NCBI GenBank assembly: GCA_021778115.1
Contig: JAJYCS010000003.1
Location: 13,156-77,155, forward strand
Source: Deltaproteobacteria bacterium
Lineage (GTDB): Bacteria > Desulfobacterota > Desulfuromonadia > Geobacterales > Pseudopelobacteraceae
Length of the DNA stretch: 64,000 nt
Reading direction: 5' to 3'
Position numbers and translations under genes: made by a program. The notes under the pieces are model-generated. The model had not been told where the DNA came from. It searched no databases and was given only the letters and a program-made list of their open reading frames with translations. This document shows positions 30,166-47,418 of the stretch, in pieces (position 1 is the stretch's first letter; each line of letters begins with the position of its first letter).

Positions 30166-31415
30166 CGCCTGCCTTCCTGAGAGAGCGGCAGCTCCAGGGT
30201 GATCTCTGCACCGCCGTTGCCGCCGTTTTCAAGCCGGATGGTGCCACCGCAGGACTCCACCACCTTCCTGCAGATGGCCAGCCCCAGGCCGCTTCCCCTG
30301 GCACGGGTGGTATAAAACGGATCAAAGGCCCGTGTCAAACCCTCCGGCGAAAAACCGCTCCCGTCATCCCGGATCACCACGCGGGCACGGTCCTGTACCG
30401 TGTCCAGCAACACTTGCACCGTCCCCCCTGACGGCATCGCCTGGCGGGCGTTGCCCAAGAGATTGAGCAGTACCTGGCGTAGACGGGCCGGCACACAGGC
30501 CACCTCACGCTCCAGCTCCCCGGAGAGCTGCAGGACAAAGTGCGGAGAGCCGGGAGGGGCGGCGGCGCTCAGGTCCTCCCAGGCCCCCCGCACGAGCCCG
30601 GCAAGCTCGGCGGTCCCGATGGCGGCAGATTCCTGGACGGCATAGGTAAGCAGGTCGTTTACCAGTTCTTCCAGCCGTTCCGATTCCGCGACGATCCGCT
30701 GGGCATAGCGCCGTTCCCGATCACCGACGGGACGCTCCGCCAACAGCTGGGCATACCCCTTGATACCGGCCAGCGGTGTACGCACCTCATGGGCCAGCAC
30801 CGCCCCCAGCTCCCCCAGCCGGGCCAGATGTTCCCGGCGGGCAAGCTCCTCGCGGCGGCGCAGATCACGGCGTTGCAGCCGCAGCGACCAGAGCCCGAAA
30901 CCCCAGGCGGCCACCAGCAGCAGCATCATCATCGCCCCACCGGCCCTGGTCCGGCGCAATATCCGATCCGCCTGCCAGGTATGGAGCGCCAGACGCAGGA
31001 TCAGAGGACCGCCGGCGATATGCAGCTGCTGTTGGAATTCGTAGACCACCTCGCCGGTCCCCAGCCTTATGCGTCCCTCGGTGACCGTGGGAGCCCCCAG
31101 CAGGGCCTGATAACGGCGGTCTTCCAACCGTTCACCGACCAGGTCCGGGTTGGTGTGGAAGAGGATGGTCCCCCGGCGGTCGACAATGCAGAAATAGGCG
31201 ATATCGGGTGATCTGAAATCAGCGAGCAGCTTCAGGGAGGGATCGCGTGAGGCGATGGTTTCGATGGCCTGCCCCAGCGACAGGGCGATGCCGCGCAGAT
31301 AGCCGCGGGTGACCGGTACGGCGCTCCGGCAGTTGATGTAGGCAAACCAGATCAGAAGGGCGCTCAGGAGCAGAGCGCCCAGGAGGATGAGATGTCGTAC
31401 TCCGGGGCGTGACAT
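30162..31415 (-). CDS. Sensor histidine kinase (ZraS-like)
   Basis: Start re-called at ATG 31415; two TMs, periplasmic domain, [15 protein letters not shown]. Confidence 0.9.
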
Positions 31416-31500
31416 GATCCCTATACTACCCCGCGCCGGCCGAAGGTCAAGGGATGGTGTGCGGCTACGTGGATCACCATCGGCGCATGAGGCTTCGACC

Positions 31501-33279
31501 TCATGCCGGCGCCCCACCGCTGACGCCGGTAGCCCACTGCGCCGTACCGGTTGCTGAGACCGAGAGCCCATGGCGGTTCATCCAGCGCCACAGTGTCGTC
31601 CGATCGACCCCGAGTTCATGGGCGACGGCGTTACGATTCCCCTTAAACCGCTCAAGGAGCGCCATGATGGTCTCGGGTGTGGCGCCGCTGCGGCTGCTGC
31701 CTGCCATGGCAGCGGCTACCCGGTGAGGAACCGTCCCCCCGCGGGGAGGGGTTCTGAAGGCGCCGGGGAGCTGCTCCATGGTGATCTCCGAACCATGACA
31801 CATGATGCTCGCCTGTTCCATAATGTTCAGCAGCTCCCGCACATTACCCGGAAACGGGTAGGTAAAGAACTGCTGCATCACCTCGGCAGCCACCGTGCGG
31901 ATCCGTTTGCCGTAGGCCAGGTTGAACCGCTGCAGCGCCATCTCCACCAGCAAGGGTATATCATCGACCCGCTCCCTCAGTGGCGGGATCTGGAGGGTGA
32001 CGATATTGAGACGGAAGAAGAGATCCTGCCGGAAGCTCCCCTGACGCACCATCTCCGCTAGGTTCCGGTGGGAGGCGGCCACGAACCGTACATCGGCCTT
32101 CACCGGGCTGCGCCCCCCCAGCGGCTGAAACTCCTTGTTCTCCAGGAGACGCAAAAGCTTCACCTGCAGCGTCAGCGGCAGATCACCGATCTCATCGAGG
32201 AAGAAGGTGCCCCCCTGACACTGTTCGATCCGGCCGGGGCGGTTTTCCGCCGCACCGGTAAAGGCCCCCTTGCGTACCCCGAAGATCTCCGACTCCAGCA
32301 GGGTCTCCGGCAACGCGCCGCAGTTGACCGTCACCAGCGGGCCGTTACGCCGACGGCTTAGGTCGTGCAGCGCATGGGCGAACAGCTCCTTGCCGGTGCC
32401 GCTCTCGCCGTACAGAAGCACCGTGGCATCGCTTGCGCCCACATCCTCCATGACGGCGAACAGCTTTCGCATGGCGCTGTTACGGCTCACCAGCCGCCGA
32501 AAGGTATACTTCTCCCTGATCTCCTCCCGCATGTCCACGATGGGGGTCAGGTCCCGCAGGGTCTCCACGCCGCCGATGGCCTTCCCCGAACAGTCGTAGA
32601 GGATGGAGGCACTGGCCGCGATCAGACGTTTACCCCCCCGGCAGTCCGTAAGCTCCAGATCCCGCTGCACGGTCTGACCGGTCGCGACGGCCTCCCGGAT
32701 CGGACAGTTCTGCTGGCAGCTGGTGGTCTTGAACACCTCACTGCAGGGGCGTCCCAGGGCATCCTGATGTGCGATGCCGGTCAACTCCTCGGCGGCCCGG
32801 TTAAAGTTGGTGATCTGCATCCGCTCGTTCACGGTGAACAACCCGTCGGCCACACTGTCGATAATCGAATAAAGCCGCCGAAGACACCGCATTGACTTGA
32901 CCCCGCCGACCAGGACCCCTTCCTTGTTGAACAGCGGCGAGGCCTTGATCAGCACCGGCACGGTTGCCCCCTGACAATCCTGCATGAGCACTTCACGGGT
33001 CACCACCGACCGTTCCCGGCGCCAAATCTCCCGCACCGGACAACCGGCTCCGCACAAGGGGGTAGCGAAGATCTCATGGCACTTCATGCCCAACGCCTCA
33101 TCCCTGCTGACCCCCGACAACAGTTGGGCGGCGTAGTTGTAGGCCACTACGGTCATTTCGGTATCTACGGCGATCACCGCGTCGGACATGTTGTCCAGAA
33201 TCTCGTTATACCATTCTTCTGTGCAAGGTGACTGAAATGCAGGCACATCATCCTCCCTGTTCAGGTCTCGACGCATCAT
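31501..33279 (-). CDS. PAS-PAS sigma54 enhancer-binding protein (Fis HTH), no REC domain
   Basis: Two PAS domains, [32 protein letters not shown]. Confidence 0.92.
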   Translation of the reverse strand: MMRRDLNREDDVPAFQSPCTEEWYNEILDNMSDAVIAVDTEMTVVAYNYAAQLLSGVSRDEALGMKCHEIFATPLCGAGCPVREIWRRERSVVTREVLMQDCQGATVPVLIKASPLFNKEGVLVGGVKSMRCLRRLYSIIDSVADGLFTVNERMQITNFNRAAEELTGIAHQDALGRPCSEVFKTTSCQQNCPIREAVATGQTVQRDLELTDCRGGKRLIAASASILYDCSGKAIGGVETLRDLTPIVDMREEIREKYTFRRLVSRNSAMRKLFAVMEDVGASDATVLLYGESGTGKELFAHALHDLSRRRNGPLVTVNCGALPETLLESEIFGVRKGAFTGAAENRPGRIEQCQGGTFFLDEIGDLPLTLQVKLLRLLENKEFQPLGGRSPVKADVRFVAASHRNLAEMVRQGSFRQDLFFRLNIVTLQIPPLRERVDDIPLLVEMALQRFNLAYGKRIRTVAAEVMQQFFTYPFPGNVRELLNIMEQASIMCHGSEITMEQLPGAFRTPPRGGTVPHRVAAAMAGSSRSGATPETIMALLERFKGNRNAVAHELGVDRTTLWRWMNRHGLSVSATGTAQWATGVSGGAPA

Positions 33280-34286
33280 AGCGTATGACAGCTCTGGCAG
33301 TAGACGTTCAGATCCCCCCGCTCCCGGTTCAGCAGGTTCCGGCTGTCACCGGCGTGGGGGTTATGACAGCCGGCACAGGAGAAGGGGCGATCTTTCTTCA
33401 GCGGGTTCACAGGTCCCTTCACCGGGTGTCCCTTGGCAAAGAAACCGGCGATGACATGGAGACCGCTCTTCTTGTCGTCATGGCAGTTCACGCAGAGGTC
33501 GGTGGGGTGCATCCTGACCAGTGCAGGCCACTCCGCTCCATGGGGGTCGTGGCAGAGGGTACAGTCCCCCATCGCGGTAGGGCCATGATGCACCTTCATC
33601 CCGTTCCACTGCCTCTCCTGGGCGCTGTGACAGAGAAAACAGCCGGTGCGGTCCGGACGGCTGGTATGATACCGCCCCCCCGCACCGCCGACCAGATGAC
33701 AGAGCAGACAGGCGCCGCCAGCGGCCGGGCGATGCAGATAGCGGTTATGCCCCTTGTCGGCATGACAGGGGAGGCAGGGAGAACGCTCCGGCGTGGCCGG
33801 GAAGAGATCCGCAAGGTTCGGCGCCATCCGGTGACAGGGGCTGCAGAACGCCTCAGCGGCAGGCAGATGAAAGGTATAGGGATGGTAGCCCGCAGGAGGC
33901 TCTTGATACGGCTTCAGCAAACGGGAACGCCGGTACACGGTGAGGCCCTCCCTGGCAACCACGGCGCCGCCGCCGGTGGTGGCGGTGAGGGTGATGCTGT
34001 TGAGTCCGGGGGAGAGCGGGACCGCCAGACAGAAGAGCCGCCGCCCCTGCTGTCGCCGCAGGGTGACCTGCGACCGCTCCCTACCTGCAACCGCCAGCAG
34101 AGCGACGCCGCTCCCCGCAACCTCCCCTGCCAGGTGCAGACGATCACCCTCCACGACCCCCTTATCGGCCGGTGTCAACAACCGGATCATCCCCCCCCTG
34201 GCGACGACAGGGGCCAGCAGCACGACGCCGAACAGGACCGTGAGAAACACCGTCAGTGGGAAGCTATGGCGCAACATGCCGTTCAA
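33276..34286 (-). CDS. Octaheme c-type cytochrome with N-terminal Ig-like domain
   Basis: 8 CxxCH motifs; signal peptide; heme-free beta-rich N-terminal region. Confidence 0.88.
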   Translation of the reverse strand: MNGMLRHSFPLTVFLTVLFGVVLLAPVVARGGMIRLLTPADKGVVEGDRLHLAGEVAGSGVALLAVAGRERSQVTLRRQQGRRLFCLAVPLSPGLNSITLTATTGGGAVVAREGLTVYRRSRLLKPYQEPPAGYHPYTFHLPAAEAFCSPCHRMAPNLADLFPATPERSPCLPCHADKGHNRYLHRPAAGGACLLCHLVGGAGGRYHTSRPDRTGCFLCHSAQERQWNGMKVHHGPTAMGDCTLCHDPHGAEWPALVRMHPTDLCVNCHDDKKSGLHVIAGFFAKGHPVKGPVNPLKKDRPFSCAGCHNPHAGDSRNLLNRERGDLNVYCQSCHTL

Positions 34287-35391
34287 CGATCACCTCCAGG
34301 GCTTTCCGATAGGCCGCCGCAGCCGCGGCCGGTTCCCGGCGCGCCTCATACAGCATCCCCTGCTGGAAGAATATCCGGTAGTCGTAGGGACTCAACCGTT
34401 CGGCCCGTTCAAACCACTGCCGCGCCGCGGCCAACTCCCCCTGGCGCCCGGTGACGGCCCCAAGCAGGTAATAGGCCGGCAGATACGCCTCATCGGCGGC
34501 CAGGCAGCGTTGCAAGAGCTGCCGGGCCCCGGCCAGGTCCCCGCGGTCAAGCCGGATCTCCCCCAGGGCGCACAGGGCAACGGCATGTTCCGGTTGCCGC
34601 CTGAGCGCCTCCCCATACTGCCGCTCTGCAGCAGCCTGGTCGTGCTGCCGCGCGTACAGCTCACCCAGACTGAGGTACGGCTGGATGAAGGATGGATCGG
34701 CCGCCTCGGCCCGCTCGAACCACCCCTTCGCCTGGTCGGAGGTCCGTTGGGAACGGAGCGCCGCCACCCCCATGGACCAGAGCCGCAGGGCGCGCTTGTC
34801 TGGCTGCCTGCCCGCCAATGCCACCCCCCTGGCGACCGGTTGCCCCGTTATGGCGCTGACGACCGTACGGCTGAACGCCTCGCTCCCCACCAGGGGAAAC
34901 CCTGATAGTTCAGCCCGGATGATCCCTGTGCCGTCGATGAACACCGTGGTGGGGACCGCAATGACACCGTAGGCGTTGAAGGTGGCAAGCCCCCGGTCAA
35001 GCAGGAGGGGGAAACTCAGCTGCAGCTCCGTAGCGGTGGCCTGCACCGCCCGCAGGGTCCCCTCGGTCACCTCCTGGCGGTCCACATTGATCCCCACCAC
35101 CGACAGCCCCTCCTGCCGGTACCGCCGGTAGAGCCGCTCCATCTCCCGCAGGGCCTTTACGGAGTTCTCCCCCCAGGTGGCCCAGAACAGAAGCAGCGTC
35201 CCCCGCTTCCCGATCAGCCTCCCCAGCTCCGCTGATCCCCCCTGGGAGGCCTGCAGGCTGAAGGGGGGGGCATCCATTCCCACCTCCAGGGAACGGAGGG
35301 CCGAGGAGGAGGCACTGCTCTGCATCAGGAAGAACACGATCCAGAGCGGGATCAACCAGCGGGGACGCCCATGACCGCCGGTACCGTTCAT
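34264..35391 (-). CDS. TlpA/ResA-like thioredoxin fold + TPR, lacking CxxC
   Basis: FWATW-GENS in place of WCxxC; VPTTVFID cis-Pro motif; C-terminal TPRs. Confidence 0.8.
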   Translation of the reverse strand: MNGTGGHGRPRWLIPLWIVFFLMQSSASSSALRSLEVGMDAPPFSLQASQGGSAELGRLIGKRGTLLLFWATWGENSVKALREMERLYRRYRQEGLSVVGINVDRQEVTEGTLRAVQATATELQLSFPLLLDRGLATFNAYGVIAVPTTVFIDGTGIIRAELSGFPLVGSEAFSRTVVSAITGQPVARGVALAGRQPDKRALRLWSMGVAALRSQRTSDQAKGWFERAEAADPSFIQPYLSLGELYARQHDQAAAERQYGEALRRQPEHAVALCALGEIRLDRGDLAGARQLLQRCLAADEAYLPAYYLLGAVTGRQGELAAARQWFERAERLSPYDYRIFFQQGMLYEARREPAAAAAAYRKALEVIVERHVAP

Positions 35392-35891
35392 TGTCCCCAG
35401 TGCCTGCCCAGTTCGTGGGCCTTGATCCCCTGCTTGAAGACCGCCAGGGCCCGGGTGTGATCCCCCCGTTTTTCGTAGATCCTCCCCAGTTCCAGATAGA
35501 TCCTGGCCGGATCGGGGGTGAGGGGAAGCTGCTGGCGCAACAGCTGTTCCGCCTCATCCAGTCTCCCCTGTCGCGCAAAGACGATGGCCCGACCGATCCT
35601 CGCCGCGCTGTTGCCGGCATCAAGCTGCAACGCCTGGTCAAAGGCCGACAGGGCGCCGTTCAGGTTATTGCCGGCCAGCAGCAGATTCCCCTGCTGCACG
35701 CATTGCTTCAGTGAGAACTGCCCTCCACTCACGGGACTGTGCACGCCTGCTCCCTCCTTCCGGTTTGTTTGCGGGGTTGCGACGGCTTTCGCCGCCGGCA
35801 GGGCCGGATCACCCGCCGGCGCCGACAACGGCAGCGCCGTCACCAGCAGCGCCAGCAGCACGCCTGCCCGCCCGATCCTGATCCCGATCAT
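35388..35891 (-). CDS. Exported TPR protein
   Basis: Start re-called at ATG 35891 (ATGA overlap); signal peptide; three TPRs. Confidence 0.8.
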   Translation of the reverse strand: MIGIRIGRAGVLLALLVTALPLSAPAGDPALPAAKAVATPQTNRKEGAGVHSPVSGGQFSLKQCVQQGNLLLAGNNLNGALSAFDQALQLDAGNSAARIGRAIVFARQGRLDEAEQLLRQQLPLTPDPARIYLELGRIYEKRGDHTRALAVFKQGIKAHELGRHWGQ

Positions 35892-37258
35892 CTGTTTTTC
35901 ACCATCTTTGCCCGGTCGTATCTGAACTCCTGATGACAACCGGGCAGACAGGAACCGCCCCCCTTGTTTTTCACCAGCCCCACCGGCAGTTGCCAGGCAC
36001 CGAAGGGGACCGCATCCCGGATATGGTTCGGGTTGTTGGTGGCGTGGGCGTCATGACAGGCGCGACAGGTCCGCCCCTTGGGGGACTTGTTGACATGGAC
36101 GTAGTGCAGGTTCTGATCGCCGTTGCGGAAGCCGGTGAGAGTCATGGTCGTGGGTTCCTTCACCAGGGTGTCGTTGTGGCAGTTAAAGCAGAGCTGATAG
36201 TTCTGCGGGTCGTACTTCGCATAAAACAGGGGGGGATAATAGGCCCGCAGAATCCTGAAAAAGTTGGAACCATGGGTGTTGTGGCAGCCGGAGCAGTCCT
36301 TCTCCTTGATCGGCCCGTGGGTGTTACGGTTCGTGGCAAAAAGCTCCTTCATGTTGGCAGTCTTCTGTTCCCCATGGCTGTACTGGCGGTCATGACAGGA
36401 GAGGCAGAGGTCCATGGGGGCCATGGCCAGCTGCTTGGGAAAGAACGAGGTGTGGGGGTTGTGACAGGCAAGGCAACCGGTGGACAGCTCCAGACCACCG
36501 TGTTTCACCGTCACGGCGGCAATCTCCTTCTGTTTGTCCTTATGGCAGCTGAAACAGACCCCCTTGGTCCGCTCACCAATCAGGGTGTACTGGTAATCAC
36601 TGCTGTGGGGGTTATGGCACTGCACGCAGCCGCCCTTCATCGGGGCATGGATATGGGGACGGGTGGCAAACTCAGCCTGTTTATCCTTATGACAACCGTA
36701 GCAGGCATCGCTCCCCTTGCCGGCCAGCAGCTTGGGGAACTGCCCCGAATGGTGGGCATGACAGGCGCTGCAGTCACCAACCGCCACCGGACCGTGCTTC
36801 ACCTTACCGTTGATGATGGAGCGGGGATGGCATTTGAAGCAGAGCTCCTGTCCCCCCCCCCGCAGTTGAAACTTGTTGCCGGACTGGTGCGGACTGTGAC
36901 AGCCGGTGCAGTTCCCCTCCTTCACCGGCTGGTGCACCACCGGCCCCAACTGCAGCTTGTCGTGGCAGGCATAACAGAGGGAGGCCACATCAGTGATCGG
37001 CGTGAAGGCGTGGCGCCCCGGCGTTGCCTGCTTGTGGCAGAAGACGCAGTTACCGGTTGCCACCGGTCCATGCACATACTGATCCTTCCCCATGGTGGGG
37101 TGGCAACCGCTGCTGACACACCCCTGCCCCGCCTTCAGGGCAAAGTCGGCAGCCGAAAGCTCCGGCGCCTCCCCGACCATACCCCAGACAAGGGCCACCA
37201 GCACCCCCATCAGACCTGCCCGGAATCGCCCAAACCGACACAGACTCGCCTCAGCCAT
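35888..37258 (-). CDS. 15-heme periplasmic c-type cytochrome
   Basis: 13 CxxCH plus CVSSGCH and CLPGCH; recurring HxPV...CxxCHxPH spacing. Confidence 0.9.
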   Translation of the reverse strand: MAEASLCRFGRFRAGLMGVLVALVWGMVGEAPELSAADFALKAGQGCVSSGCHPTMGKDQYVHGPVATGNCVFCHKQATPGRHAFTPITDVASLCYACHDKLQLGPVVHQPVKEGNCTGCHSPHQSGNKFQLRGGGQELCFKCHPRSIINGKVKHGPVAVGDCSACHAHHSGQFPKLLAGKGSDACYGCHKDKQAEFATRPHIHAPMKGGCVQCHNPHSSDYQYTLIGERTKGVCFSCHKDKQKEIAAVTVKHGGLELSTGCLACHNPHTSFFPKQLAMAPMDLCLSCHDRQYSHGEQKTANMKELFATNRNTHGPIKEKDCSGCHNTHGSNFFRILRAYYPPLFYAKYDPQNYQLCFNCHNDTLVKEPTTMTLTGFRNGDQNLHYVHVNKSPKGRTCRACHDAHATNNPNHIRDAVPFGAWQLPVGLVKNKGGGSCLPGCHQEFRYDRAKMVKNR

Positions 37259-37313
37259 ACGCTCCCTCCCTTGATTGGTTGTACCTGCTCATCGCCCTCA
37301 CACACAGCCGGTC

Positions 37314-38996
37314 CTACAGTCCATGGATCTCACCATGGCAGACCAGGACGCAGGAGTTTTTGTTGACCACCGGCGGGAGATACTGAATCGGCTTGCTGCC
37401 GTTTTGGGAGACCACCCGCAGGTCGAAATTGATCATCCCCAGGTTGTACGGATTGCCGTGGGGGTCGTGACAGTAGACGCACCGGTCCTTGAGCGGATGG
37501 GTGCTGACATGGGTCTTGTGCTGCTTGAACTTGGTGTAGGTGCCGAACAGGGTAGTCACGTTATGGCAGCCGAAGCAGAGGTCGTAATCGGCCGCGTTGT
37601 AGGTGGTGGCCGGCAGCTCCGAGGTGACAAAATTACGGACCAGGATATGGGGGTAGATGGAACCGTGGGATCCTCGTATCCCGCTGGAATCGCTGCCGTG
37701 ACAATCGGTGCAATAGATGACGCTCCCCTTCACCAGCGGGGGGATCAGCATGTTATCGGATATCTTGTTAAGCGGTCCCATCACCGGATGAAAGGAGGGA
37801 TTGGCCGGATTGAACTTGATCCGGTTGTCCGTGATGGTGGTCACCCTGGGGATGGCGGTGGTGGGCATGACGTTATTGAGCAGGGACCCATGGCACTTGA
37901 AACAGACCTCATACTCATACGTTGCGGCTACAAGATAGGTATTGGCCGCGGTCACCGCCGGCACCCCCTGCAGCCTGCCGGGCACCAGCGGGGCCGGATA
38001 GAGGACGCTGTTGGCCTGGTGGGGGTTGTGGCAGTCAACACACTCCACGTGCTTGGTGACCCCGCCAGCGTAGTTCTCAGCCGGATCATGGATGCCGGTG
38101 TAGGAGGAGACCGGGTGACGGTACGGCTTATTCAGGTCGGTAAGGATGTTCTTCGCCGCCACATTGCCGTCATGGCAGACGAGGCAGTTGGTCTCCTCCA
38201 CGCTGTAGTTCAGAAGCCGCTGGGGACCGCCTGCCCCATGGGGACGATGACAGCTGCCGCACGCGTTCTCCGCCACGGTGGTATAGCTGGATCGGGGCCA
38301 GGGGTCCGGGGCTATCCCGTTCCAGCTCTTGGTGGAGACGGCATGGCTGCTGGCGCCCCAGTTGGTCTTCTGATGACAGCCGACACAGAGGGCGCCGCTC
38401 AGATTGGAGATGACCAGAAACTTGCCATACTGGTCGTTGTGGGGGTCATGGCAGGCGGTACACTGCATCTCCCCGGCACTGTCGAGCCGGATGGCCGCCG
38501 GAAGGGCGGCAGCGCTCTGCAACTGGCTGCCCGGCATGGAGGCCGCCGTGCCGTAGACGAAGGAGACCGGATGATCGTCCGCCAGATTGGTCCCCAGGTT
38601 ACTGCTGCGACCGGCCAGGGTGGCGGTAAATGGCAGCACCGTCCCCTGGGAGAGCACCGCCCCCAGGGCGATGGTGCCGTCGTGGCAGGAGAGACAGAGC
38701 CGTGATGCGCCGGTGGGTTGCCCCACGCTGCTCCTGAGGGTCGAGCTGAGATAGGGAGTATAGGGGTCACCCGGGTCCTGTCGATTCCAGAGATAGGGGA
38801 CGTCGGACCGAGCGTTGTGCGGGGTATGACAGAAGATGCAGATCTGGCTCTCCGTGGTGGCCTTTATGGCGCCGGGACCGCTCACCGAGAGGTTGTGCAG
38901 GCTGGTGACGATGCTCCCCCCCCAGGCCGCCCAAGGGGCGCCGAGCAGGACACAACAGGCCGCCACGGCTGCCCGTATCGATGCAACGCCGTTCAT
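37314..38996 (-). CDS. 12-heme cytochrome with N-terminal OmcE-like tetraheme module
   Basis: 11 CxxCH plus CVLVCH; the first four hemes align by eye to the 44667-45263 protein. Confidence 0.88.
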   Translation of the reverse strand: MNGVASIRAAVAACCVLLGAPWAAWGGSIVTSLHNLSVSGPGAIKATTESQICIFCHTPHNARSDVPYLWNRQDPGDPYTPYLSSTLRSSVGQPTGASRLCLSCHDGTIALGAVLSQGTVLPFTATLAGRSSNLGTNLADDHPVSFVYGTAASMPGSQLQSAAALPAAIRLDSAGEMQCTACHDPHNDQYGKFLVISNLSGALCVGCHQKTNWGASSHAVSTKSWNGIAPDPWPRSSYTTVAENACGSCHRPHGAGGPQRLLNYSVEETNCLVCHDGNVAAKNILTDLNKPYRHPVSSYTGIHDPAENYAGGVTKHVECVDCHNPHQANSVLYPAPLVPGRLQGVPAVTAANTYLVAATYEYEVCFKCHGSLLNNVMPTTAIPRVTTITDNRIKFNPANPSFHPVMGPLNKISDNMLIPPLVKGSVIYCTDCHGSDSSGIRGSHGSIYPHILVRNFVTSELPATTYNAADYDLCFGCHNVTTLFGTYTKFKQHKTHVSTHPLKDRCVYCHDPHGNPYNLGMINFDLRVVSQNGSKPIQYLPPVVNKNSCVLVCHGEIHGL

Positions 38997-40033
38997 CGCC
39001 CCCCCACCTTCAGGTACTGGAAGAGCTGCACCCGGTTGTTATAGGTATCCGCCACGTAGATCCGGTCGGTGGCGTCGATGCTGATCCCGGTGGGCATCCA
39101 GAATTCCCCCGCCTGCCGTCCATGGCCGCCGAATGCCAGCAGAAGCCGCCCTGCCCGGTCAAAGATCTGCACGTTGTCGAACAGGGCATCAACCACGTAG
39201 ATGTTATCGTCGCTATCCACCGCTATCCCCCGTGGCCGGCTGAAGGATCCCGGGGTATCGCCAGCCGTGCCGAAGCTGCGGAGAAAGCTGCCGTCGGGTC
39301 CAAAGAGCTGTACCCTGAAGTTCAGGGTATCGACGACCAGAATCTCGCCTTGGCTGGTGATTGCGAGATCGGTCGGGTAATTGAACTGCCCTTCGCCGTT
39401 GCCGCGGCTCCCGAAACGCCCCTTGAAGGCGAGGGTTACCCGGTCATAGCGAAAGACGGCCGCCTTGCGGCTGTCCACCACCAGGAGCTCGTCGGTCCGC
39501 CGGTTCAGGGCGATACCGGTGGGACGCTCAAGCGCCCCCCTGCCCAGTTCGCCGGGCCCGCCCCCGGCAAGGGACAGTATCCTGACGCCGCAGGCAGCGG
39601 CATCGCTCACATAGAGACGCCCGGCCCGACTGTCCACCGCCAGCCGCACCGCCACCTGCAGCGGATGGTCGTCCTCGGGGAAGATCCTGAACCGCTGCCG
39701 GGTGCGGTCATAGAGTTTGACCGTCTGGGAGGCCGCATCAATCACATACACCGTGCCGCCGGCGCCGACGCCGATGCCGGTGGGCTGCACCAGGCGACGA
39801 TCCACCCCGCCCGTCACCACCTCCCAGATCCTCGCCAGCAGCCCGTTCCGTATCCCCAGGTCGTCAGGCAGCGCAAAGCTGCCGAGATACCGTATCCTCA
39901 CCGGTTCGGCACCGGCAGGCCAGACCGGCCCCTCCGGCAGCGGTCCGCTCAGGTGGCGCTCTGCGGCGCAGCCGATGCACAGGAACAGCAGCATCGCCGT
40001 CGGCAGGTATCGACGCCAGGGCCGCGCCATCAC
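38993..40033 (-). CDS. NHL-repeat beta-propeller lipoprotein
   Basis: Lipobox CIGC; repeats F..P.GIAVD...IYVVD..NxRVQ.F. Confidence 0.9.
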   Translation of the reverse strand: MMARPWRRYLPTAMLLFLCIGCAAERHLSGPLPEGPVWPAGAEPVRIRYLGSFALPDDLGIRNGLLARIWEVVTGGVDRRLVQPTGIGVGAGGTVYVIDAASQTVKLYDRTRQRFRIFPEDDHPLQVAVRLAVDSRAGRLYVSDAAACGVRILSLAGGGPGELGRGALERPTGIALNRRTDELLVVDSRKAAVFRYDRVTLAFKGRFGSRGNGEGQFNYPTDLAITSQGEILVVDTLNFRVQLFGPDGSFLRSFGTAGDTPGSFSRPRGIAVDSDDNIYVVDALFDNVQIFDRAGRLLLAFGGHGRQAGEFWMPTGISIDATDRIYVADTYNNRVQLFQYLKVGGR

Positions 40034-42702
40034 CAGACCGCCCTGCTGAGTTCAAGCACCACCGCCTGACTGGTCCGGTCGTACCGGTTGAACAGATCGT
40101 TTTGTTGCGCGTACTTGTAGCTGAGACGGAGGGTCCAGAGGCGGTACCCGGCCTCGAGGGCGACCTTGCCGCCGCGGTTCAGACTCCCTTCGAGGTCGCC
40201 GTCGATCCGTTCCAGATACCCTTCGAGGGCGCCGTTTAACCAGGTAAAAGGGAACCAGGTAAGCCCCAGCACGCCGCCGTAGCTCTTCTTCAGATCAACG
40301 ATGCTCCGGTAACGGGTCTCGCCGTAATAGCCCCGCATGTTCCAGCGGAACCAGTTGCCGTACTGCAGCCGCAGGCTCTGATAGGCCTCCCAGCGCCCAT
40401 AGGAGAGGTCGGAGTTACTGGTGGTATCCTCATATATGCAGCCGCTCTCCCCCCATCCTTCGTCGATCCTGATGCTGGCCAGATGCATCCGGCTGTTGTT
40501 CAGCAGATCGGGGGATGGGCCGCCCAGAAGACGCTGATCCGACTGCAGGTAACGGTAGTTGAGGAACAGGGTGCGGAACAGCTCAACCGATGCCCCGTAC
40601 TGCTGGCTCACCACCAGGTCGTCATAACCGGCGTTTCGGGTATACCGGTAACTGACCAGTATCAACTGGCCGTCACCGATACTCCCCAGAGGCAGCCGAC
40701 TGATCCGGATCGATCGGCCGATCAGGTCGGCCCGGTAGTCCAGATCCTGGACGTAGATCACCGATCCGGCGCTGTTGGTGATCACGATGCTCCCGTCGCT
40801 TACGTCGCTCTGGGTAAGAAAGGTCTCGGCGCCGTTGCGCAGGGTGTGCGGTTCATTGGTGATCTGCACCGACCCTCGGGAGCCGCTCCGGGTGGTGTAG
40901 ACCGGCGTCACCCCGGCGCTCAGCCCCACCACCCCCCATCCCCCCAGGGCACGCTGATAATCGGTCTGCAGCACTCCCCCCGCCGACTGCTGACGTCCGC
41001 CGTCTGCCTCGTTGCTGGAACCGGTGACACCGGCCATGGTGGTGAGATTTTCGTATAGCCGGTGGGTCAGCCGGGCATCCAGCGAATGCCAGCTGCTGGT
41101 GGAACTGCCGGCGTTCACCCGACGGAAGATATACTGCCAGCTTGAGCGGAGATTCGGACGGTGCTGCCAGGCGAGAAGCTCGTTCAGGAACAGGGAATCG
41201 TTCTGCAGGGCGGAGCCGCTCTGCCCCAGGTACTGAAGATTGCTGGAGAGGGTGACCCGCTCGTCCTTCGTCACCGGATACCGGTTGTTCAAGACGCTGG
41301 TTATGGTCCTGATCTCGCCGGAAATGCCGTTTGTGGACTGGTTGTTCAGGCTGTAGGAGAGGGAGAGACTACTCTCGCCGGTCAGGTTGTTCCGGTTACG
41401 GGTCAGCAGATGCAGCTCCCGCCAGTCGCTGCTGGCGCCGTAGTACCCTTCCTGGTCCGACCGGCTGCTGCTGAGCCCCACGCTGGTGGGCAGCAGCTCA
41501 TATTTCAGCGTAAGGTCTGCCCCGTAACTTTCGCTGGTGGTGCTAGTCACCCCGGTAAAGATCGCCCAGGAACGGTTCTCCAGGTGCTGGCCGAATGCGG
41601 TGAGGGTATAGGGTTTCTGCCCCAGCAGGGTGACATTTGCCTGGTAGTTGGGACTGAATGCGTCGCTTGAGCCGTTACTGCTGCCGGTCAGGGCTGCGTT
41701 GCTCCTGGTGATACTCTGGGCAAACTCGGGGGAAAACTTGAGCCTGAACTGCAACAGGGCCGGATGGTACAGGTACCCCTTGCTTTCAAGGTCAAGCCGT
41801 TCGGTGACGATGTGGGAACGGTCTAACTGCTTGCCCCCGGTGACGTTCCGGTCATCCTGGTTGAATTCATACCTGACCTGGGCCCCCACCGATGGGGGAT
41901 CAATGGCGATACGATGCCGTGTTCCCGCCTTCTCTTCGTTTTTGCTCCACCGGTACCCTCGCCGGGGCGATTCATCCGCTCCCGCCTCCATGAGGGGAGA
42001 TACGCCGGCGGTAGCCTGCCAGTTCCGCTGCAGATCGCCTGCGCCGTACATCAGGCGGGCCCGCTGCACCGTCTCCGCCGGGGTAAGGGGGCGTATCTGC
42101 GCTAGGGTGTCCAGGGCGTTCACCGCATCGGCAGGGCGGTTCAGGGATTCCGCAAGCCGGGCCTGTTCCTTCAACAGGGCGGCACGCTCCCCAAAACGGA
42201 ACCCCGAGGAGAGCAACTGATAGGCCTCGTTGAGGCTCCCCAGCCGTTCACTCACCAGCAGATACTCCTTAAGCAGCTCCGAATCGCCATCACCGCTCAT
42301 CAGGATGGTCTCAAGCAGAGAACGCCGCACCGGCAGTTCGTTCATGCTCCGGGAGAGACGCAACGCCTCCTGTCGGGCCGCGCCATCCCCCTGTTTCACC
42401 AGGTAGACCCAGTAGTTCAGGGCTGTTGCGGGTTTCCCGGCCAGTTCTGCACAGCGGGCTGCACGGCGACGCCACTCCAGATCGGCGGGGTGGGCCTCGA
42501 TCGCCTGTTCAGCCATCTGAAGCGCCGCATCATATCGGTTTTTCGCCATGTTGCTGATATACGCCATACCGTAAAGTTCATCCTCAAAGAGATTTCGTGC
42601 GTCATCAACGCTTGTGGGCCCCTGCTCAACACCATGGGCCGGGCCGTGCACCACGGAAAGACCTGCACACATCGCCAACAGCAGTAACCGCCGTCTCGCC
42701 AT
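40030..42702 (-). CDS. TPR + large outer membrane beta-barrel (porin of a porin-cytochrome conduit)
   Basis: 890 aa; signal peptide, helical TPR-like N-terminal ~230 aa, long alternating beta-strand region, terminal aromatic residue (LELSRAVW). Confidence 0.75.
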   Translation of the reverse strand: MARRRLLLLAMCAGLSVVHGPAHGVEQGPTSVDDARNLFEDELYGMAYISNMAKNRYDAALQMAEQAIEAHPADLEWRRRAARCAELAGKPATALNYWVYLVKQGDGAARQEALRLSRSMNELPVRRSLLETILMSGDGDSELLKEYLLVSERLGSLNEAYQLLSSGFRFGERAALLKEQARLAESLNRPADAVNALDTLAQIRPLTPAETVQRARLMYGAGDLQRNWQATAGVSPLMEAGADESPRRGYRWSKNEEKAGTRHRIAIDPPSVGAQVRYEFNQDDRNVTGGKQLDRSHIVTERLDLESKGYLYHPALLQFRLKFSPEFAQSITRSNAALTGSSNGSSDAFSPNYQANVTLLGQKPYTLTAFGQHLENRSWAIFTGVTSTTSESYGADLTLKYELLPTSVGLSSSRSDQEGYYGASSDWRELHLLTRNRNNLTGESSLSLSYSLNNQSTNGISGEIRTITSVLNNRYPVTKDERVTLSSNLQYLGQSGSALQNDSLFLNELLAWQHRPNLRSSWQYIFRRVNAGSSTSSWHSLDARLTHRLYENLTTMAGVTGSSNEADGGRQQSAGGVLQTDYQRALGGWGVVGLSAGVTPVYTTRSGSRGSVQITNEPHTLRNGAETFLTQSDVSDGSIVITNSAGSVIYVQDLDYRADLIGRSIRISRLPLGSIGDGQLILVSYRYTRNAGYDDLVVSQQYGASVELFRTLFLNYRYLQSDQRLLGGPSPDLLNNSRMHLASIRIDEGWGESGCIYEDTTSNSDLSYGRWEAYQSLRLQYGNWFRWNMRGYYGETRYRSIVDLKKSYGGVLGLTWFPFTWLNGALEGYLERIDGDLEGSLNRGGKVALEAGYRLWTLRLSYKYAQQNDLFNRYDRTSQAVVLELSRAVW

Positions 42703-42706
42703 CCCG

Positions 42707-43465
42707 TTACCGCCTCTCCGCTACCGGTGAGGCGGTCTCGCGATACTCACTGATCAGCAGGGAACGCCCTTTCCCCAGATGGGGATTATGGCAGGAGAGA
42801 CAGGGCTCCGGGCCACGGGGATGGGGAATCAACGCGCCAATGGCCTCCGGGCTGTGACAGGAGCGGCAGAGCTGGTCAGCCGGCTTACGGAGGATCCCTG
42901 AAATCCTGCTCTGGTGAGGATCATGGCAGGCCAAACAGTCCCCCTTTGCCACCGGGTTGTGCAGCCAGAGCCGCTCCTTGATGGCCCGTATGGCGGTCTT
43001 ATCAGCATGACAGCCCAGACAGAGCCGTTCCTTGGCCCCACACAACGGCCCCGGCATACCGCCGCCGGTATAGAACACCCGTTCCCCTTCTGGTGTGCCG
43101 CCACCCTTTCCCTGCTGAAACAGGAACTGGTTGTTTCCGCCATGGCAGGCGATACACTCCCCCTGCAGCCAGGGGCGGTGGGAGTAATACCGGATAACGA
43201 CCGGAACCGCTTTTCCTCCTGTCTGGGACCGTTGTGCCGGACTGCCTGACAGGGGGAGCTGCCGTTGCCCCGCCGGTTGTCTGGCACCTACCGGGGGAGC
43301 TTCTTTTTCCTGGACCTCCAGGGGAGGGACACCGGTAAAGAAGAAGGTCAGCACGGTGTGACGGCTTTGGACGGAACAGCCAGCGAGCAGCAGCCCCACC
43401 GCAATACTCCACGCGAAAACTCCCTGATGCCAGCCACTCTGCATTCTCCGCGTCACCCCCTCCAT
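42707..43465 (-). CDS. Pentaheme c-type cytochrome lipoprotein
   Basis: Lipobox LLAGC; 5 CxxCH motifs; start may be a few codons later (MQSGW). Confidence 0.85.
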   Translation of the reverse strand: MEGVTRRMQSGWHQGVFAWSIAVGLLLAGCSVQSRHTVLTFFFTGVPPLEVQEKEAPPVGARQPAGQRQLPLSGSPAQRSQTGGKAVPVVIRYYSHRPWLQGECIACHGGNNQFLFQQGKGGGTPEGERVFYTGGGMPGPLCGAKERLCLGCHADKTAIRAIKERLWLHNPVAKGDCLACHDPHQSRISGILRKPADQLCRSCHSPEAIGALIPHPRGPEPCLSCHNPHLGKGRSLLISEYRETASPVAERR

Positions 43466-43483
43466 CGGCCGCCTCCCCGCCGG

Positions 43484-44554
43484 CTAGGGGGTCCAGTCGC
43501 CAAAGCCATAGACGTTCAGCTTGTTGACACCGGCCATGTTGCAGACATAGACCAGATACTTAAGCTTGAAGCGGGGATCGGCAAAACGCTGAAAAAATGG
43601 GACGTTGTGGTAATCGATGGCAATCCCTGCGGGCAGGTACATGCTGCCGGGGGTATCCCCGGCACCGCCGAAGAACAACAGCAGTTTCCCCTCAGGGTTG
43701 AATATCTGGACATTCTCAAAGGCGGCATCCACCAGGTAGAGATTGTTGTCCCCATCAACGGCCATACCCTTTGGCCTGGCCAGACTCCCCAGGGTATTGC
43801 CGGCAGTCCCGATCTTCTGCAGAAACCTCCCGTCAGGAGCGAACTTTTGCACCCTGAAGTTGAAGGCATCGTTCACCAGCAGGTTACCGACCCGATCAAC
43901 GGTGATATGGGTGGGACGGTTTAGCTCCCCCTCCTTGTCCCCCCCCTTGCCGATGGTCAGCAGCTGTTTGCCGGTCAGGCGGTCAAACACGACAACCCGA
44001 TGCTTCATCATGTCGCAGACATAGACCCGGTCGCCGTACACCGCCACATCGCAGGGGCGTTCCAGCTGGGCGGGATCTCCCAGGGTTCCGATGAAACGCC
44101 TGTCCGGCCCGAAGACCACCACCTGCCGCCGTTTCAGATCGGCGATGTAGAGGGTTCCGTCGTCGCTCACCCAGATGCCGGAGGGCACCTGCAGCGCCCC
44201 CCGTCCGCCGGCACGCAGTGGGGAGATGCGCCGTTTCTGCAGATCGATCTCCAAGATGTCGTTGGAGACCCGATCGGTGAGATAGATACGCCCCTGGACC
44301 CCATGAACCGCGTAGGGCCGCCCCATGGTCCTGTCGGTCTCCCGCCCCCCCAGCAGAAAGTCATCCAGCTTGGAACCGGCATCGACCAGATCATCAACCG
44401 ACGAGATGGAGGTGAGAAACTGCAGGCGGGGCTTTTCAGGCAGGGGGGGATACAGCACGGCCTGCTGCTGCGGGGTGGTGGTGGCGCATCCCTGGAACAA
44501 CAGCATGAACAGCGGCATCAGCAGGATCCGGCACAGCATGACGACAATGGGCAT
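43484..44554 (-). CDS. NHL-repeat beta-propeller lipoprotein
   Basis: Start re-called at ATG 44554; lipobox FQGC; NHL repeats. Confidence 0.88.
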   Translation of the reverse strand: MPIVVMLCRILLMPLFMLLFQGCATTTPQQQAVLYPPLPEKPRLQFLTSISSVDDLVDAGSKLDDFLLGGRETDRTMGRPYAVHGVQGRIYLTDRVSNDILEIDLQKRRISPLRAGGRGALQVPSGIWVSDDGTLYIADLKRRQVVVFGPDRRFIGTLGDPAQLERPCDVAVYGDRVYVCDMMKHRVVVFDRLTGKQLLTIGKGGDKEGELNRPTHITVDRVGNLLVNDAFNFRVQKFAPDGRFLQKIGTAGNTLGSLARPKGMAVDGDNNLYLVDAAFENVQIFNPEGKLLLFFGGAGDTPGSMYLPAGIAIDYHNVPFFQRFADPRFKLKYLVYVCNMAGVNKLNVYGFGDWTP

Positions 44555-44666
44555 TACAGATCTCTCCCTTCGGTCGCAGGGCGCACGCATCACGGCAACT
44601 GCCGGGGCGACGGCCGCCATGGGTCGCCGGATCCCGGCTCGTTTGCCGCCTGCGGTGCAGGACGGG

Positions 44667-45263
44667 TTACTTCAGATGACAGGTGAGACAGAGCGCCGAA
44701 CCGGTGTTGGCCTTGTTCAGCATCTTGTCCAGGTTCAGCTTGTTGTGCACGTCATGGCAGGAGGAACACTCGAATTTGCCGCTGTTCAGCCACCCCGCCG
44801 GCAGGGTGGCGGGATCGGCCAGTTCGCCATCGGCTGTCTGCAACGTGCTGTCGTAGGTAAAGGAGACCGGGTGACTCTTTTTCAGATCGGTCCCTAGATT
44901 ACCGGCCGTACTGATCATGGTGGTGCCGGTATTGGTGCCGTAGGCATCAAGCGCCACGGTGCCGTCATGGCAGGAGAGGCAGAGCTTGGAGACCCCGGCC
45001 GGCTGGACGATGCTGCCTTTGCCGTTAAACGTGGGACTGTCGTACAGCGTGTAGGTGGCGGTAGTCAGCTTGTGGTTCCAGAGGGGGGCATCAGTGGTGC
45101 TGGTGTCGGCCTTGTGCGGTGTGTGACAGACCACACAGATCTGCGCATCGGTGCCGGTCAGGGCGCTCAAGTCGTGCTTTGATGACTTCACAGCGGCCTG
45201 GGCAAGAGAGGCAAGACCGACAGCGGCAAACAGGGCGACCAGGGGCAGGGCAATCCGTTTCAT
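44667..45263 (-). CDS. omcE: OmcE-like tetraheme outer-surface cytochrome
   Basis: Start ATG 45263 with AAGGAG RBS; KHDLS..QICVVCHTPH..LWN..LY..CLSCHDG..NLGTDL..HPVSF..ECSSCHDVH..LCLTCH, matching the OmcE motif order as recalled. Confidence 0.8.
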   Translation of the reverse strand: MKRIALPLVALFAAVGLASLAQAAVKSSKHDLSALTGTDAQICVVCHTPHKADTSTTDAPLWNHKLTTATYTLYDSPTFNGKGSIVQPAGVSKLCLSCHDGTVALDAYGTNTGTTMISTAGNLGTDLKKSHPVSFTYDSTLQTADGELADPATLPAGWLNSGKFECSSCHDVHNKLNLDKMLNKANTGSALCLTCHLK

Positions 45264-45395: not shown

Positions 45396-45412
45396 ATCAG
45401 ATTCCGTGCCAA
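45396..45412 (-). promoter_or_regulatory. Putative sigma54 promoter of the cytochrome operon
   Basis: TTGGCACGGAATCTGAT: perfect -24 element, deviant -12 (GA). Confidence 0.5.
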
Positions 45413-45478: not shown

Positions 45479-45513
45479 GTGCAAATCCTGCACTACCTGT
45501 GCAGGATTTGCAC
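45479..45513. promoter_or_regulatory. Perfect 15-bp inverted repeat made of two GTGCA-N5-TGCAC sites (enhancer/UAS)
   Basis: GTGCAAATCCTGCAC-TACCT-GTGCAGGATTTGCAC; sites 20 bp apart, 70-100 bp upstream of the -24 element. Confidence 0.7.
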
Positions 45514-45583: not shown

Positions 45584-46573
45584 ATGCCGCTATTCCTCTT
45601 GCCCCATAACGCCCTCGATGCGTGCCTGCAGCGCCTCCGCAGCGTCGCCGAACTCCATGGCCCACGGCGTGATACGGACGGACTCTGTCGCCTTGCCCCG
45701 CTGCCGGAGGGTGTGCGCCCTGATCTCACGACGCTGCGGACCCTGCTTCCGGCCAAGAAGTACCTGCTTCCCCCGGTAGAGACCACCCTCACCTTCCGCC
45801 CGGGAGAGGGGTACCGGCTCCCCCGGTTGCCTGACACCCCCCTGATCCTGCTGGGGCTCCACCCCTGCGACCTGGCGGCAATCGCCTACCTCGACCGGCA
45901 GTTTCTGGCCGCCCCGCCTGACCCCACCTACGCAGCCCGCCGGGCGGCAATCACCCTGGTGGGAACCGGCTGCAGCCCTGATGGGTACTGTTCCTGTCTG
46001 ACCCACCCTTCCCCCCTCCCGACCCCCTGCGACCTGTTCCTGCATCCGGTGGAGGAGGGGTTCCTGGTGACGGCTGAGAGCGACCGGGGGAAAGAGCTCT
46101 GCCGATCGCTGGCCGGGCTGCTGCAGGCGGATCGACGGTGCCCGCCTCCGTCGGCACGGGACCGGTTCGCCCCCCCCCTTCCCCCACCCTCCACCGAGGA
46201 GCTCGACCTCTCACTACCGGACTGGCGTGAGCTGGCAGATCACTGCCTCGGTTGCGGCGCCTGCTCCATCGCCTGCCCCACCTGCGCCTGTTTTGAACTG
46301 CTCGAATACGCCACTCTTGACGCTGCCGGCGCCGAACGTAGACGACGCTGGGATAGCTGCCTCTTCAAGGGACACGCCATGGTGGCCGGGGGAGAGAGTT
46401 TTCAGCAGGAGCGGTGGCAACGGTTCCGCTACCGTTATCAACACAAGTATCGGGGATTCGGCCCGCTCCAGGGTCTCCCCTCCTGCGTGGGCTGCGGCCG
46501 CTGCCGGGTTCAGTGCCCCAGTGGGCTTGACCTCCGTCCCCTGGCGGAACGCCTGGAAAGGAGGGAGGCATGA
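45584..46573 (+). CDS. Group 3b hydrogenase beta subunit (HydB/AsrA-like, 2x4Fe-4S)
   Basis: CLGCGACSIACPTC, RRWDSC, CVGCGRC..QCP. Confidence 0.88.
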   Translation: MPLFLLPHNALDACLQRLRSVAELHGPRRDTDGLCRLAPLPEGVRPDLTTLRTLLPAKKYLLPPVETTLTFRPGEGYRLPRLPDTPLILLGLHPCDLAAIAYLDRQFLAAPPDPTYAARRAAITLVGTGCSPDGYCSCLTHPSPLPTPCDLFLHPVEEGFLVTAESDRGKELCRSLAGLLQADRRCPPPSARDRFAPPLPPPSTEELDLSLPDWRELADHCLGCGACSIACPTCACFELLEYATLDAAGAERRRRWDSCLFKGHAMVAGGESFQQERWQRFRYRYQHKYRGFGPLQGLPSCVGCGRCRVQCPSGLDLRPLAERLERREA

Positions 46574-47418
46574 GCTCCGGCAGTCCCCCCTGTCCGGCGA
46601 CACTCCTCAGCATCCGCCCCCTGAGCGGGGATACCTCCCTGTTCACCCTGCAGGTACCGGAGGGGGCTCAAGTGGGAGGGGAACAGCCCTGGCAGTTCGA
46701 ACCGGGACAGTTCCTGCAACTTTCGGTGCCAGGTGCCGGAGAGGCGCCGATCTCCTACTGCGGCGTCCCCACCCCAGACCGGCGGGTCGAGCTCTGCATC
46801 CGCCGGGTCGGCCGGGTCACCACCGCCCTGCACCATGCCCTGCCGGGGGATCAGCTGGCGGTGCGGGGCCCCTTTGGTCGCGGCTTCCCCCTCAGGCACT
46901 ACCTGGGACGGGATATCCTGCTGGTGGCGGGGGGACTCGGCATGGCGCCGCTCCGCGCCCTGCTCCATACCCTCCTCGCAGAACGGCAACGATTCGGCCG
47001 GTTAACCCTCCTGTACGGGGCCAAGGCCCCGGACGCCCTGCTGTTCCGCCATGAGCTAACCGATCTGGCCGGTCGGAAGGATCTGCTCCTGCGCCTGGCG
47101 GTGGACCGGGCCGTGGCCTGCCCGGCGGCGATTCCCTCCTGCCGTGAGGCGCTGCTGCCGGAGCTCCTGGATGGCCTTGCGCTGACGCCGGGGCGCACCT
47201 TCGTCCCGGTCTGCGGGCCACCGTCGCTCTATCGGGCGCTGATACCGCCCCTGCTGGCACGGGGGGTGACGCCGGACCGGATCCACCTCTCCCTGGAACG
47301 CCGGATGCAATGCGGACAAGGGCGTTGTGGCCACTGCGCCGTCGGCAGCCTCCTCTGCTGTACTGAGGGTCCGGTGTTTGCCTACAGCACCCTCCTGGGG
47401 ATCGAGGGGGCGCTGTGA
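46570..47418 (+). CDS. Group 3b hydrogenase gamma subunit (FAD/NAD-binding, 2Fe-2S; HydG/AsrB-like)
   Basis: GEAPIS, RGPFGRGF, AGGLGMAP, CGPP, ERRMQCGQGRCGHC...C.EGPVF. Confidence 0.9.
   Translation: MSSGSPPCPATLLSIRPLSGDTSLFTLQVPEGAQVGGEQPWQFEPGQFLQLSVPGAGEAPISYCGVPTPDRRVELCIRRVGRVTTALHHALPGDQLAVRGPFGRGFPLRHYLGRDILLVAGGLGMAPLRALLHTLLAERQRFGRLTLLYGAKAPDALLFRHELTDLAGRKDLLLRLAVDRAVACPAAIPSCREALLPELLDGLALTPGRTFVPVCGPPSLYRALIPPLLARGVTPDRIHLSLERRMQCGQGRCGHCAVGSLLCCTEGPVFAYSTLLGIEGAL

Follow-up and report, generated by a model that had tools for sequence, protein, structure and literature searches.

It is not yet settled how cells export their cytochrome nanowires, anchor them and connect them electrically. 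The structure of OmcE, a tetrahaem cytochrome that polymerises into such filaments, was reportedly the work of Wang et al. in 2022. We address the question through an operon on the minus strand (31501–45263) of a 64,000-nucleotide stretch of contig JAJYCS010000003.1 (hereafter the window) from a Deltaproteobacteria bacterium of the family Pseudopelobacteraceae (assembly GCA_021778115.1). The source genome (2.29 Mb in 107 contigs) is from the same order as Geobacter sulfurreducens and from another family. Our analysis confirms that the window contains a conserved extracellular electron transfer operon with a relative of OmcE at its centre; the interpretation placed on it by a sequence-only reading of the window is partly supported. 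On balance we think it probable that the locus is a σ54-controlled extracellular electron transfer operon of the OmcE nanowire type, with a variant architecture that we term type B.

A conserved operon around a relative of OmcE

An open reading frame (ORF) check of the 64-kb window gave eleven co-directional genes, abutting or overlapping one another. From the first transcribed to the last, they encode a 198-aa tetrahaem cytochrome (the free subunit), a β-propeller lipoprotein (NHL-1), a pentahaem lipoprotein (c5), a β-barrel protein with a tetratricopeptide repeat (TPR) domain (the TPR-barrel), a second propeller lipoprotein (NHL-2), a 12-haem cytochrome (c12), a 15-haem cytochrome (c15), a small TPR protein, a ResA-like thioredoxin-fold protein fused to TPR repeats (Trx-TPR), an 8-haem cytochrome (c8) and a transcriptional activator (Table 1). 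Sec or lipoprotein signals are present on all products, and the domain calls were confirmed with Pfam and NCBIfam. The operon contains 44 haem motifs, comprising 41 CxxCH (4 + 5 + 11 + 13 + 8), two CxxxCH and one CxxxxCH. The sequence-only reading had listed the same eleven minus-strand genes and 44 motifs, and the ORFs and the motif count agree with both figures. It had also pointed to four stop/start overlaps of 4 nt; the overlaps are of this type (ATGA or GTGA) and number five, at the barrel/NHL-2, NHL-2/c12, c15/TPR, TPR/Trx-TPR and c8/activator junctions.

In metagenomic relatives with OmcE-like proteins of 56–71% identity the ten structural genes stand in the same order, indicating that the arrangement is not due to chance. 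The cluster was rightly read as a unit with NHL lipoproteins and a barrel; it is conserved, and it has a σ54 activator of its own. No inner-membrane quinol dehydrogenase was found in the operon, and the earlier description of the locus as a complete electron route was to this extent overstated.

The free subunit is a homologue of OmcE in a sister clade

The 198-aa protein had been described as OmcE-like, and it aligns end to end with the two solved OmcE filaments, those of Desulfuromonas soudanensis (9YUQ; E=8e-26) and G. sulfurreducens (7TFS; E=1e-22), with 36–37% identity to both. The two validated OmcEs are themselves 41% identical (Petersen et al., 2026; PMC13712944). In the alignment with both proteins no haem ligand is lost: the 8 Cys and the 8 His (of four CxxCH motifs and four distal positions) all line up. 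The OmcE family is large, with at least 6,997 proteins at E<1e-10 among the candidates scored.

A maximum-likelihood tree resolved three well-supported groups: the validated OmcEs of G. sulfurreducens and D. soudanensis (clade A; support 98/87), the free subunits, including the window protein (clade B; support 100/99), and the N-terminal modules of c12 proteins (clade N; see below). By alignment and tree position the window subunit is a true OmcE homologue and not an orthologue of the validated filament formers; its place in a sister clade rules out the idea that it is the orthologue of GSU0618. The internal branching of clades B and N is roughly congruent. Two separate, well-supported clades with roughly matching branching suggest that the free subunit and the c12 N-module co-evolve.

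The 12-haem cytochrome contains a full OmcE module

The sequence-only reading missed a full OmcE module at the N-terminus of c12. Residues 13–210 align with the whole of G. sulfurreducens OmcE (7TFS), through its C-terminal CHKK, at E=2e-26, and every haem ligand of the module is retained in this alignment. Beyond the module c12 continues for 350 further residues with eight more haem motifs. The c12 family comprises at least 150 clusters at 50% identity with near full-length matches at E<1e-99. When 42 c12 proteins from many phyla were aligned, the twelve haem motifs and 25 His proved invariant, one His above two per haem. One of the spare positions, H218, is found ten residues beyond the final haem motif of the module.

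Petersen et al. (2026) expected the anchor of the filament to be OmcE-like with one extra His (PMC13712944, Discussion), and the anchor candidate that they found lies only outside the omcE cluster (PMC13712944). From its sequence c12 is a candidate for such an anchor: it fits their description and lies inside the operon, and 25 His for 12 haems is the surplus that they predicted, which supports the assignment.

The same authors state that the OmcE operons they examined encode neither an anchor nor a tip candidate, and they reasoned that a tip would need more solvent-exposed haems (PMC13712944). It could be argued on these grounds that c12 is itself the polymerising or tip unit, either a homopolymer or a distal cap exposing haems to minerals, with the 198-aa protein as an accessory; its N-module gives a slightly stronger match to Geobacter OmcE (2e-26) than the free subunit (1e-22). 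We consider this highly improbable. The free subunit, not c12, is encoded first behind the promoter, the usual place of the most abundant product, and the 350-aa extension that leaves the module at its last haem should stand in the way of head-to-tail stacking on that side.

Table 1. Positions in the 64-kb window of the operon genes, of candidate control elements and of adjoining regulator genes
Feature	Position	Strand	Supporting evidence
OmcE-family tetrahaem cytochrome, clade-B free subunit, presumed filament monomer (198 aa, Sec signal)	44667-45263	-	ATG, AAAGGAG ribosome-binding site
NHL-1 β-propeller lipoprotein	43484-44620	-	Pfam NHL / DUF5128, lipobox FQGC
Pentahaem lipoprotein c5	42707-43465	-	5 CxxCH, lipobox LAGC, Paired_CXXCH_1
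TPR-barrel outer-membrane protein (890 aa)	40030-42702	-	AlphaFold2 mean pLDDT 87.8
NHL-2 β-propeller lipoprotein	38993-40033	-	Pfam NHL 113 bits, lipobox CIGC
12-haem cytochrome c12, OmcE module (residues ~27-210) + 8-haem extension	37314-38996	-	11 CxxCH + 1 CxxxCH
15-haem MtrA/DmsE-like cytochrome c15, GSU0615 homologue	35888-37258	-	6R2Q chain A E=1.7e-11
Small secreted TPR protein	35388-35891	-	Pfam TPR_16, TPR_19, weak TPR_CcmH_CycH; ATGA overlaps on both sides
Trx-TPR, ResA-like thioredoxin fold without CxxC, fused to TPR repeats	34264-35391	-	AhpC-TSA/ResA matches
8-haem cytochrome c8, N-terminal non-haem domain, GSU0616 homologue	33276-34286	-	8 CxxCH
PAS-PAS-AAA+-HTH σ54 enhancer-binding protein (activator)	31501-33279	-	Pfam Sigma54_activat 222 bits, PAS_4 x2, HTH_8
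Two perfect 15-nt inverted repeats, GTGCAAATCCTGCAC n5 GTGCAGGATTTGCAC, candidate upstream activating sequence (UAS) for the σ54 activator	45479-45513	.	In the upstream 320-nt region
σ54-type promoter-like element TGGCACGGAATCTGAT	45396-45411	-	-24 GG, atypical -12 TGA; 148 nt before the start codon
Histidine kinase, downstream of the activator	30162-31571	-	Pfam HisKA/HATPase_c
Response-regulator σ54 activator, downstream	28816-30165	-	Pfam Response_reg + Sigma54_activat

Relation to the published omcE and osc clusters

Petersen et al. (2026; mBio, preprint October 2025) solved the D. soudanensis OmcE bundle (PMC13712944) and described the omcE cluster as OmcE, two multihaem cytochromes, two β-propeller lipoproteins and a large β-barrel, the last a putative secretion pore or anchor; they reported homologues in five phyla (PMC13712944). 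The idea of a dedicated export or assembly system for OmcE is therefore already published as a proposal on genomic grounds, and the statement in the sequence-only reading that none had been defined does not stand. The window holds this gene set (OmcE, two multihaem cytochromes, two propeller lipoproteins and a barrel together).

For a direct comparison, sequences identical to the PDB entries were used to find the reference omcE regions in the genomes of G. sulfurreducens and D. soudanensis. The reference clusters (GSU0615-0619 and that of D. soudanensis WTL) have in common with the window an OmcE-family tetrahaem cytochrome with identical haem-ligand positions, NHL lipoproteins and a large barrel. 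Their NHL proteins are 30–36% identical to those of the window (32–36% for NHL-1 and the NHL genes beside omcE), and both accompanying cytochromes have homologues there: c15 is ~40% identical to the first cytochrome of both clusters, and c8, aligned along its whole length, is 29–30% identical to the other (GSU0616 in G. sulfurreducens, an 8-haem protein in D. soudanensis). In contrast, comparison with the window proteins gave no c12 and no c5 in either reference region, and tblastn of the window barrel in these regions gave no match at 1e-4 or 1e-5. The window cluster adds c12, c5, the TPR protein, the Cys-less ResA-TPR protein (Trx-TPR) and an in-operon σ54 activator, and it is without the glycosylation gene block of the published cluster. 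The surroundings differ as well, the published cluster lying between purHDE/resB-ccsB and ffh and that of the window between a NiFe hydrogenase operon and two-component regulators.

Judged by homology, the operon is made up of the published parts and a second set (c5, c12 and a different barrel), and the second set is the widespread one (see below). The features not yet published are chiefly c12 as a candidate anchor, a barrel of ~30 strands unlike that of the reference clusters, Trx-TPR with its missing CxxC and a conserved region of likely σ54 control.

The osc cluster follows a like logic, to the extent that its description allows comparison: the filament cytochrome is encoded with paralogous cytochromes and with proposed folding and porin-like secretion proteins. 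Shen et al. (2025) are cited in PMC13712944 for a porin-like pathway mounting OmcS, and as summarised in PMC13194489 their scheme for OmcS gives OscE/F/G a role in secretion, OscH in folding and OscD in morphology. OmcS differs in being a hexahaem cytochrome of a sequence family unrelated to OmcE. NHL-repeat genes are also found beside omcS in G. sulfurreducens.

The outer-membrane barrel

The AlphaFold2 model of the barrel protein comprises a twelve-helix TPR-like solenoid (residues 32–232), a disordered linker and ~30 strands (residues 271–887). An insert of 57 residues (622–678) between strands 18 and 19 contains most of the invariant residues of the family. If the TPR domain is periplasmic, as in BcsC/PgaA, strand parity would place this insert on the periplasmic side. 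Only in the lineage of the window does the protein have the TPR extension; in other phyla it is ~650 aa long and without TPR.

A PDB sequence search with the barrel gave no match. Foldseek with the model returned generic large barrels only (TonB-dependent receptors, MtrB, LptD, ushers, BcsC and Deinococcus SlpA), all at low TM-scores, with MtrB ranked second (E=9e-10, TM 0.29–0.37). As in MtrCAB (6R2Q), an MtrA-like multihaem cytochrome (c15) is encoded together with a large barrel. However, MtrB has 26 strands against ~30 strands plus a TPR domain and an insert in the window barrel, and no equivalent of the MtrC/OmcA-type decahaem cytochromes was found in the operon, which sets it apart from MtrCAB-type clusters. 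In architecture only, the operon also resembles FimD/PapC, BcsC and PgaA, where a periplasmic TPR or chaperone element is combined with a large barrel through which a polymer is built or exported, and a variant subunit serves as anchor; there is no sequence homology to these systems, the TM-scores are low, and the cargo here would be a folded, haem-loaded cytochrome.

Putative periplasmic cytochromes and candidate chaperones

The 15-haem cytochrome c15 matches MtrA of MtrCAB (6R2Q chain A, E=1.7e-11); against TIGR03508 it scores 119 bits, under the DmsE family cut-off of 192. The small TPR protein is confined to close relatives of the window and to Desulfobulbaceae/Desulfocapsa loci.

The closest PDB fold to Trx-TPR is ResA (4NMU, E=1e-14). 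The window protein has FWATW-GENS in place of the CxxC site. At this site every one of the seven Trx-TPR orthologues has G[ED]NS or SRQS, and the closest of them lie 3–4 kb downstream of c12 in several Desulfuromonadia genomes. Because CxxC is lost throughout, Trx-TPR cannot reduce the disulfides of apocytochromes. The protein is like ResA/CcmG and the TPR chaperone CcmI in that a ResA fold is fused to TPR repeats with a weak CcmH/CycH TPR match, and it is unlike ResA/CcmG, with their redox-active CxxC, in having no such site. With a redox-dead ResA fold joined to TPR repeats, Trx-TPR may serve to bind or chaperone cytochrome subunits.

Distant paralogues of Trx-TPR in other Desulfuromonadia include copies with a single in-frame TGA or TAG, often in tandem pairs (examples are G113:C12:281371-282450, G129:C10:46690-47763 and G159:C10:47496-48566, given as genome, contig and position). 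Some of these ResA-TPR paralogues may be selenoproteins of the ResA-like WAxxUGC family; the in-frame TGA is consistent with the NCBIfam match to a selenocysteine ResA-like family.

Type-B clusters across phyla

Distribution was counted in 43 species-representative loci for which 18 kb of sequence or more was available; the loci were picked by similarity to the window subunit and the sample is thus biased towards type B. NHL-1 is present in 42 of these loci, NHL-2 and c12 in 40 each, the barrel in 37, c5 in 32 and a c15-like cytochrome in 29, and the TPR and Trx-TPR genes in only three. The core set of NHL-1, barrel, NHL-2 and c12 occurs together in 34 of the 43, in many phyla. Loci in the species-representative scan came from genomes labelled Bacteroidota, Calditrichota, Chlorobiota/Ignavibacteria, Gemmatimonadota, Nitrospirota, Planctomycetota, Omnitrophota, Bdellovibrionales, Beta-/Gammaproteobacteria and Desulfobulbaceae. 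A search of the literature on OmcE with Bacteroidota, Ignavibacteria or Calditrichota found no paper describing the type-B architecture. Within the source genus an OmcE-family gene is present in four of 22 sampled genomes, indicating that the cluster is accessory.

A type-B cluster is also present in G. sulfurreducens PCA (chromosome 3,532,405–3,539,994), with genes for the subunit, NHL, c5, barrel, NHL and c12; its c12 is 39% identical to that of the window. The roles proposed here can therefore be tested by knock-outs in this strain. If type-B loci make wires, long-range electron transfer is far wider than the Geobacter model suggests. As a separate observation, the G. sulfurreducens type-B cluster lies far from omcE and is followed by a gene for a 991-aa protein with seven CxxCH motifs. 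Separately, iron oxides are mentioned in papers as inducing cytochromes GSU3218-3233.

The breadth of this distribution bears on the direction of electron flow. The machinery might work mainly inward, drawing electrons from minerals, from partner cells or from reduced species of iron or sulfur instead of disposing of those of respiration. Multihaem chains can run in either direction, many lineages that are not known to reduce metals carry the cluster (among them Rhodocyclales, Thiobacillaceae, Acidiferrobacterales and Chlorobiota/Ignavibacteria), and in the window a cytoplasmic NiFe hydrogenase operon adjoins it. Nothing in the sequence fixes direction, however, and the validated relatives are metal- and electrode-reducing bacteria (PMC13712944); we regard a mainly inward function as improbable.

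The control region

The activator gene is translationally coupled to that of c8 through an ATGA overlap, and the operon probably regulates itself. In ~20 loci of other phyla a gene for a related AAA+ activator is the immediate upstream neighbour of the OmcE-like gene. Upstream of the operon the palindrome GTGCA-N5-TGCAC forms the pair of inverted repeats listed in Table 1; it occurs three times in the window against 0.09 expected, and the pair is found upstream of omcE in four of five close relatives, in regions that are otherwise unalignable. The promoter-like element is conserved as TGGYAY-N5-YTGAW at −122 to −152 in all five close relatives (background 0.0115 per kb per strand), and rpoN is present in the genome. 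The histidine kinase and response regulator encoded downstream (28816–31571) are possibly part of the regulatory unit of the operon.

Each PAS domain of the activator is followed (residues ~60–90 and ~175–200) by a repeated motif, C-x-E-[IV]-F...C-x3-C-P-[VI]-R-E, and the protein has 14 Cys in total; the motif may be a metal or redox-sensing site.

Filament or conduit

In the mechanism that we favour, c15 and c8 would relay electrons across the periplasm, and the barrel with the two lipoprotein propellers would form both the passage through the outer membrane and the mounting point. The tetrahaem subunit would be exported and polymerise head to tail via the His-haem interface known from OmcE. 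Through its OmcE module c12 would dock at the cell-proximal end, and its eight extra haems would wire the polymer to the barrel or to the periplasmic chain. The TPR and Cys-less ResA-TPR proteins may hold cytochrome subunits in the periplasm before export, and the PAS activator, binding the GTGCA-N5-TGCAC palindromes, would switch the operon on. To the questions of export, anchoring and wiring type B would in this way bring a candidate anchor, putative chaperones, a giant barrel of its own kind and a switch for the operon.

A more detailed version makes c12 the base of an OmcE-type filament. Its N-module would nucleate or terminate the polymer via the His-haem interface, with H218 satisfying the last haem of the module; the eight C-terminal haems would enter the ~30-strand barrel, held by the NHL proteins; and the Cys-less ResA-TPR and TPR proteins would act as chaperones that block premature polymerisation. 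These parts together would make a dedicated, undescribed assembly pathway in many phyla and in G. sulfurreducens. We advance this version tentatively and think it less likely than not.

Several results weigh against the filament mechanism or parts of it. At a position where the validated OmcEs and the c12 N-module read LWNR, the clade-B subunits read LWNH and so gain a ninth invariant His (H64 in the window protein), and by the same counting argument that supports c12 as anchor a ninth His could make clade-B monomers self-satisfied. No clade-B protein is known to form filaments. G. sulfurreducens has a type-B cluster, yet the filaments reported for it are OmcS, OmcE and OmcZ only (PMC13712944); the filament reading is weakened by this observation together with the ninth His. 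When family profiles of the window barrel and of the 755–775-aa reference barrel (GSU0619 position) were compared with hhalign, the probability was 9%, indicating no detectable relation in sequence. For c12 AlphaFold2 gave a model of moderate quality (pLDDT 69), with which Foldseek returned nothing below E=1; the argument for c12 as anchor is one of counting and homology, and the docking geometry is hypothetical. Finally, the −12 of the promoter-like element is TGA where the canonical sequence is GC, for which reason we call it a likely σ54 promoter, short of proven; the canonical TGGCAC-N5-TTGCW (≤2 mismatches) is not enriched in the window (30 found vs 32.5 expected), and the promoter call therefore rests on the conservation of the element in relatives.

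Some of these points would be accommodated by a porin-cytochrome conduit that makes no filament. The barrel would house c15 (or c12) as MtrB houses MtrA, the tetrahaem protein and c5 would be monomeric surface or periplasmic proteins, and the NHL propellers would be structural partners. Nine invariant His for four haems in the clade-B subunits, and a type-B cluster in G. sulfurreducens with no fourth filament reported (PMC13712944), are as such a conduit would have it, as are the resemblance of c15 to MtrA and the second rank of MtrB among the Foldseek matches to the barrel. The TM-score to MtrB is low, however, and the tetrahaem protein retains the full ligand set and the length of OmcE, a family in which both solved members (9YUQ and 7TFS) are polymers. 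A paralogous OmcE module that is fused into c12 and co-evolves with the subunit is also hard to explain without a subunit-subunit interface. Taking these observations together, we think a filament-free conduit rather unlikely, and the σ54-controlled nanowire operon remains the reading that we prefer.

Flanking genes and other observations

A third copy of the palindrome, GTGCAAATGCTGCAC (28774–28788), and an element TGGCACGGTTGCTGTA (28698–28683) are located on the minus strand within the interval 28560–28830. They precede three genes for small secreted proteins or lipoproteins with no family match (28325–28626, 27421–28281 and 26914–27411), just downstream of the regulator genes; these three genes may belong to the same regulon as the cytochrome operon.

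On the other side of the cytochrome operon, and divergent from it with a common control region, is a four-gene operon for a cytoplasmic NiFe hydrogenase (45584–49416, plus strand), comprising a 4Fe-4S subunit, an FAD/NAD subunit and the small and large subunits. In close relatives a GNAT gene adjoins the cluster and there is no hydrogenase operon at this position, whereas in the window the hydrogenase operon lies between the GNAT gene and the cluster. An ORF at 57794–58435, put forward as a second OmcE-like copy on account of identical length and third-position G+C content (GC3), was rejected as unrelated and contains no haem motifs. At 50748–57286 (minus strand) large membrane-protein genes lie by a NiFe large-subunit-like gene, an arrangement that resembles a membrane-bound hydrogenase or an Mrp-type complex.

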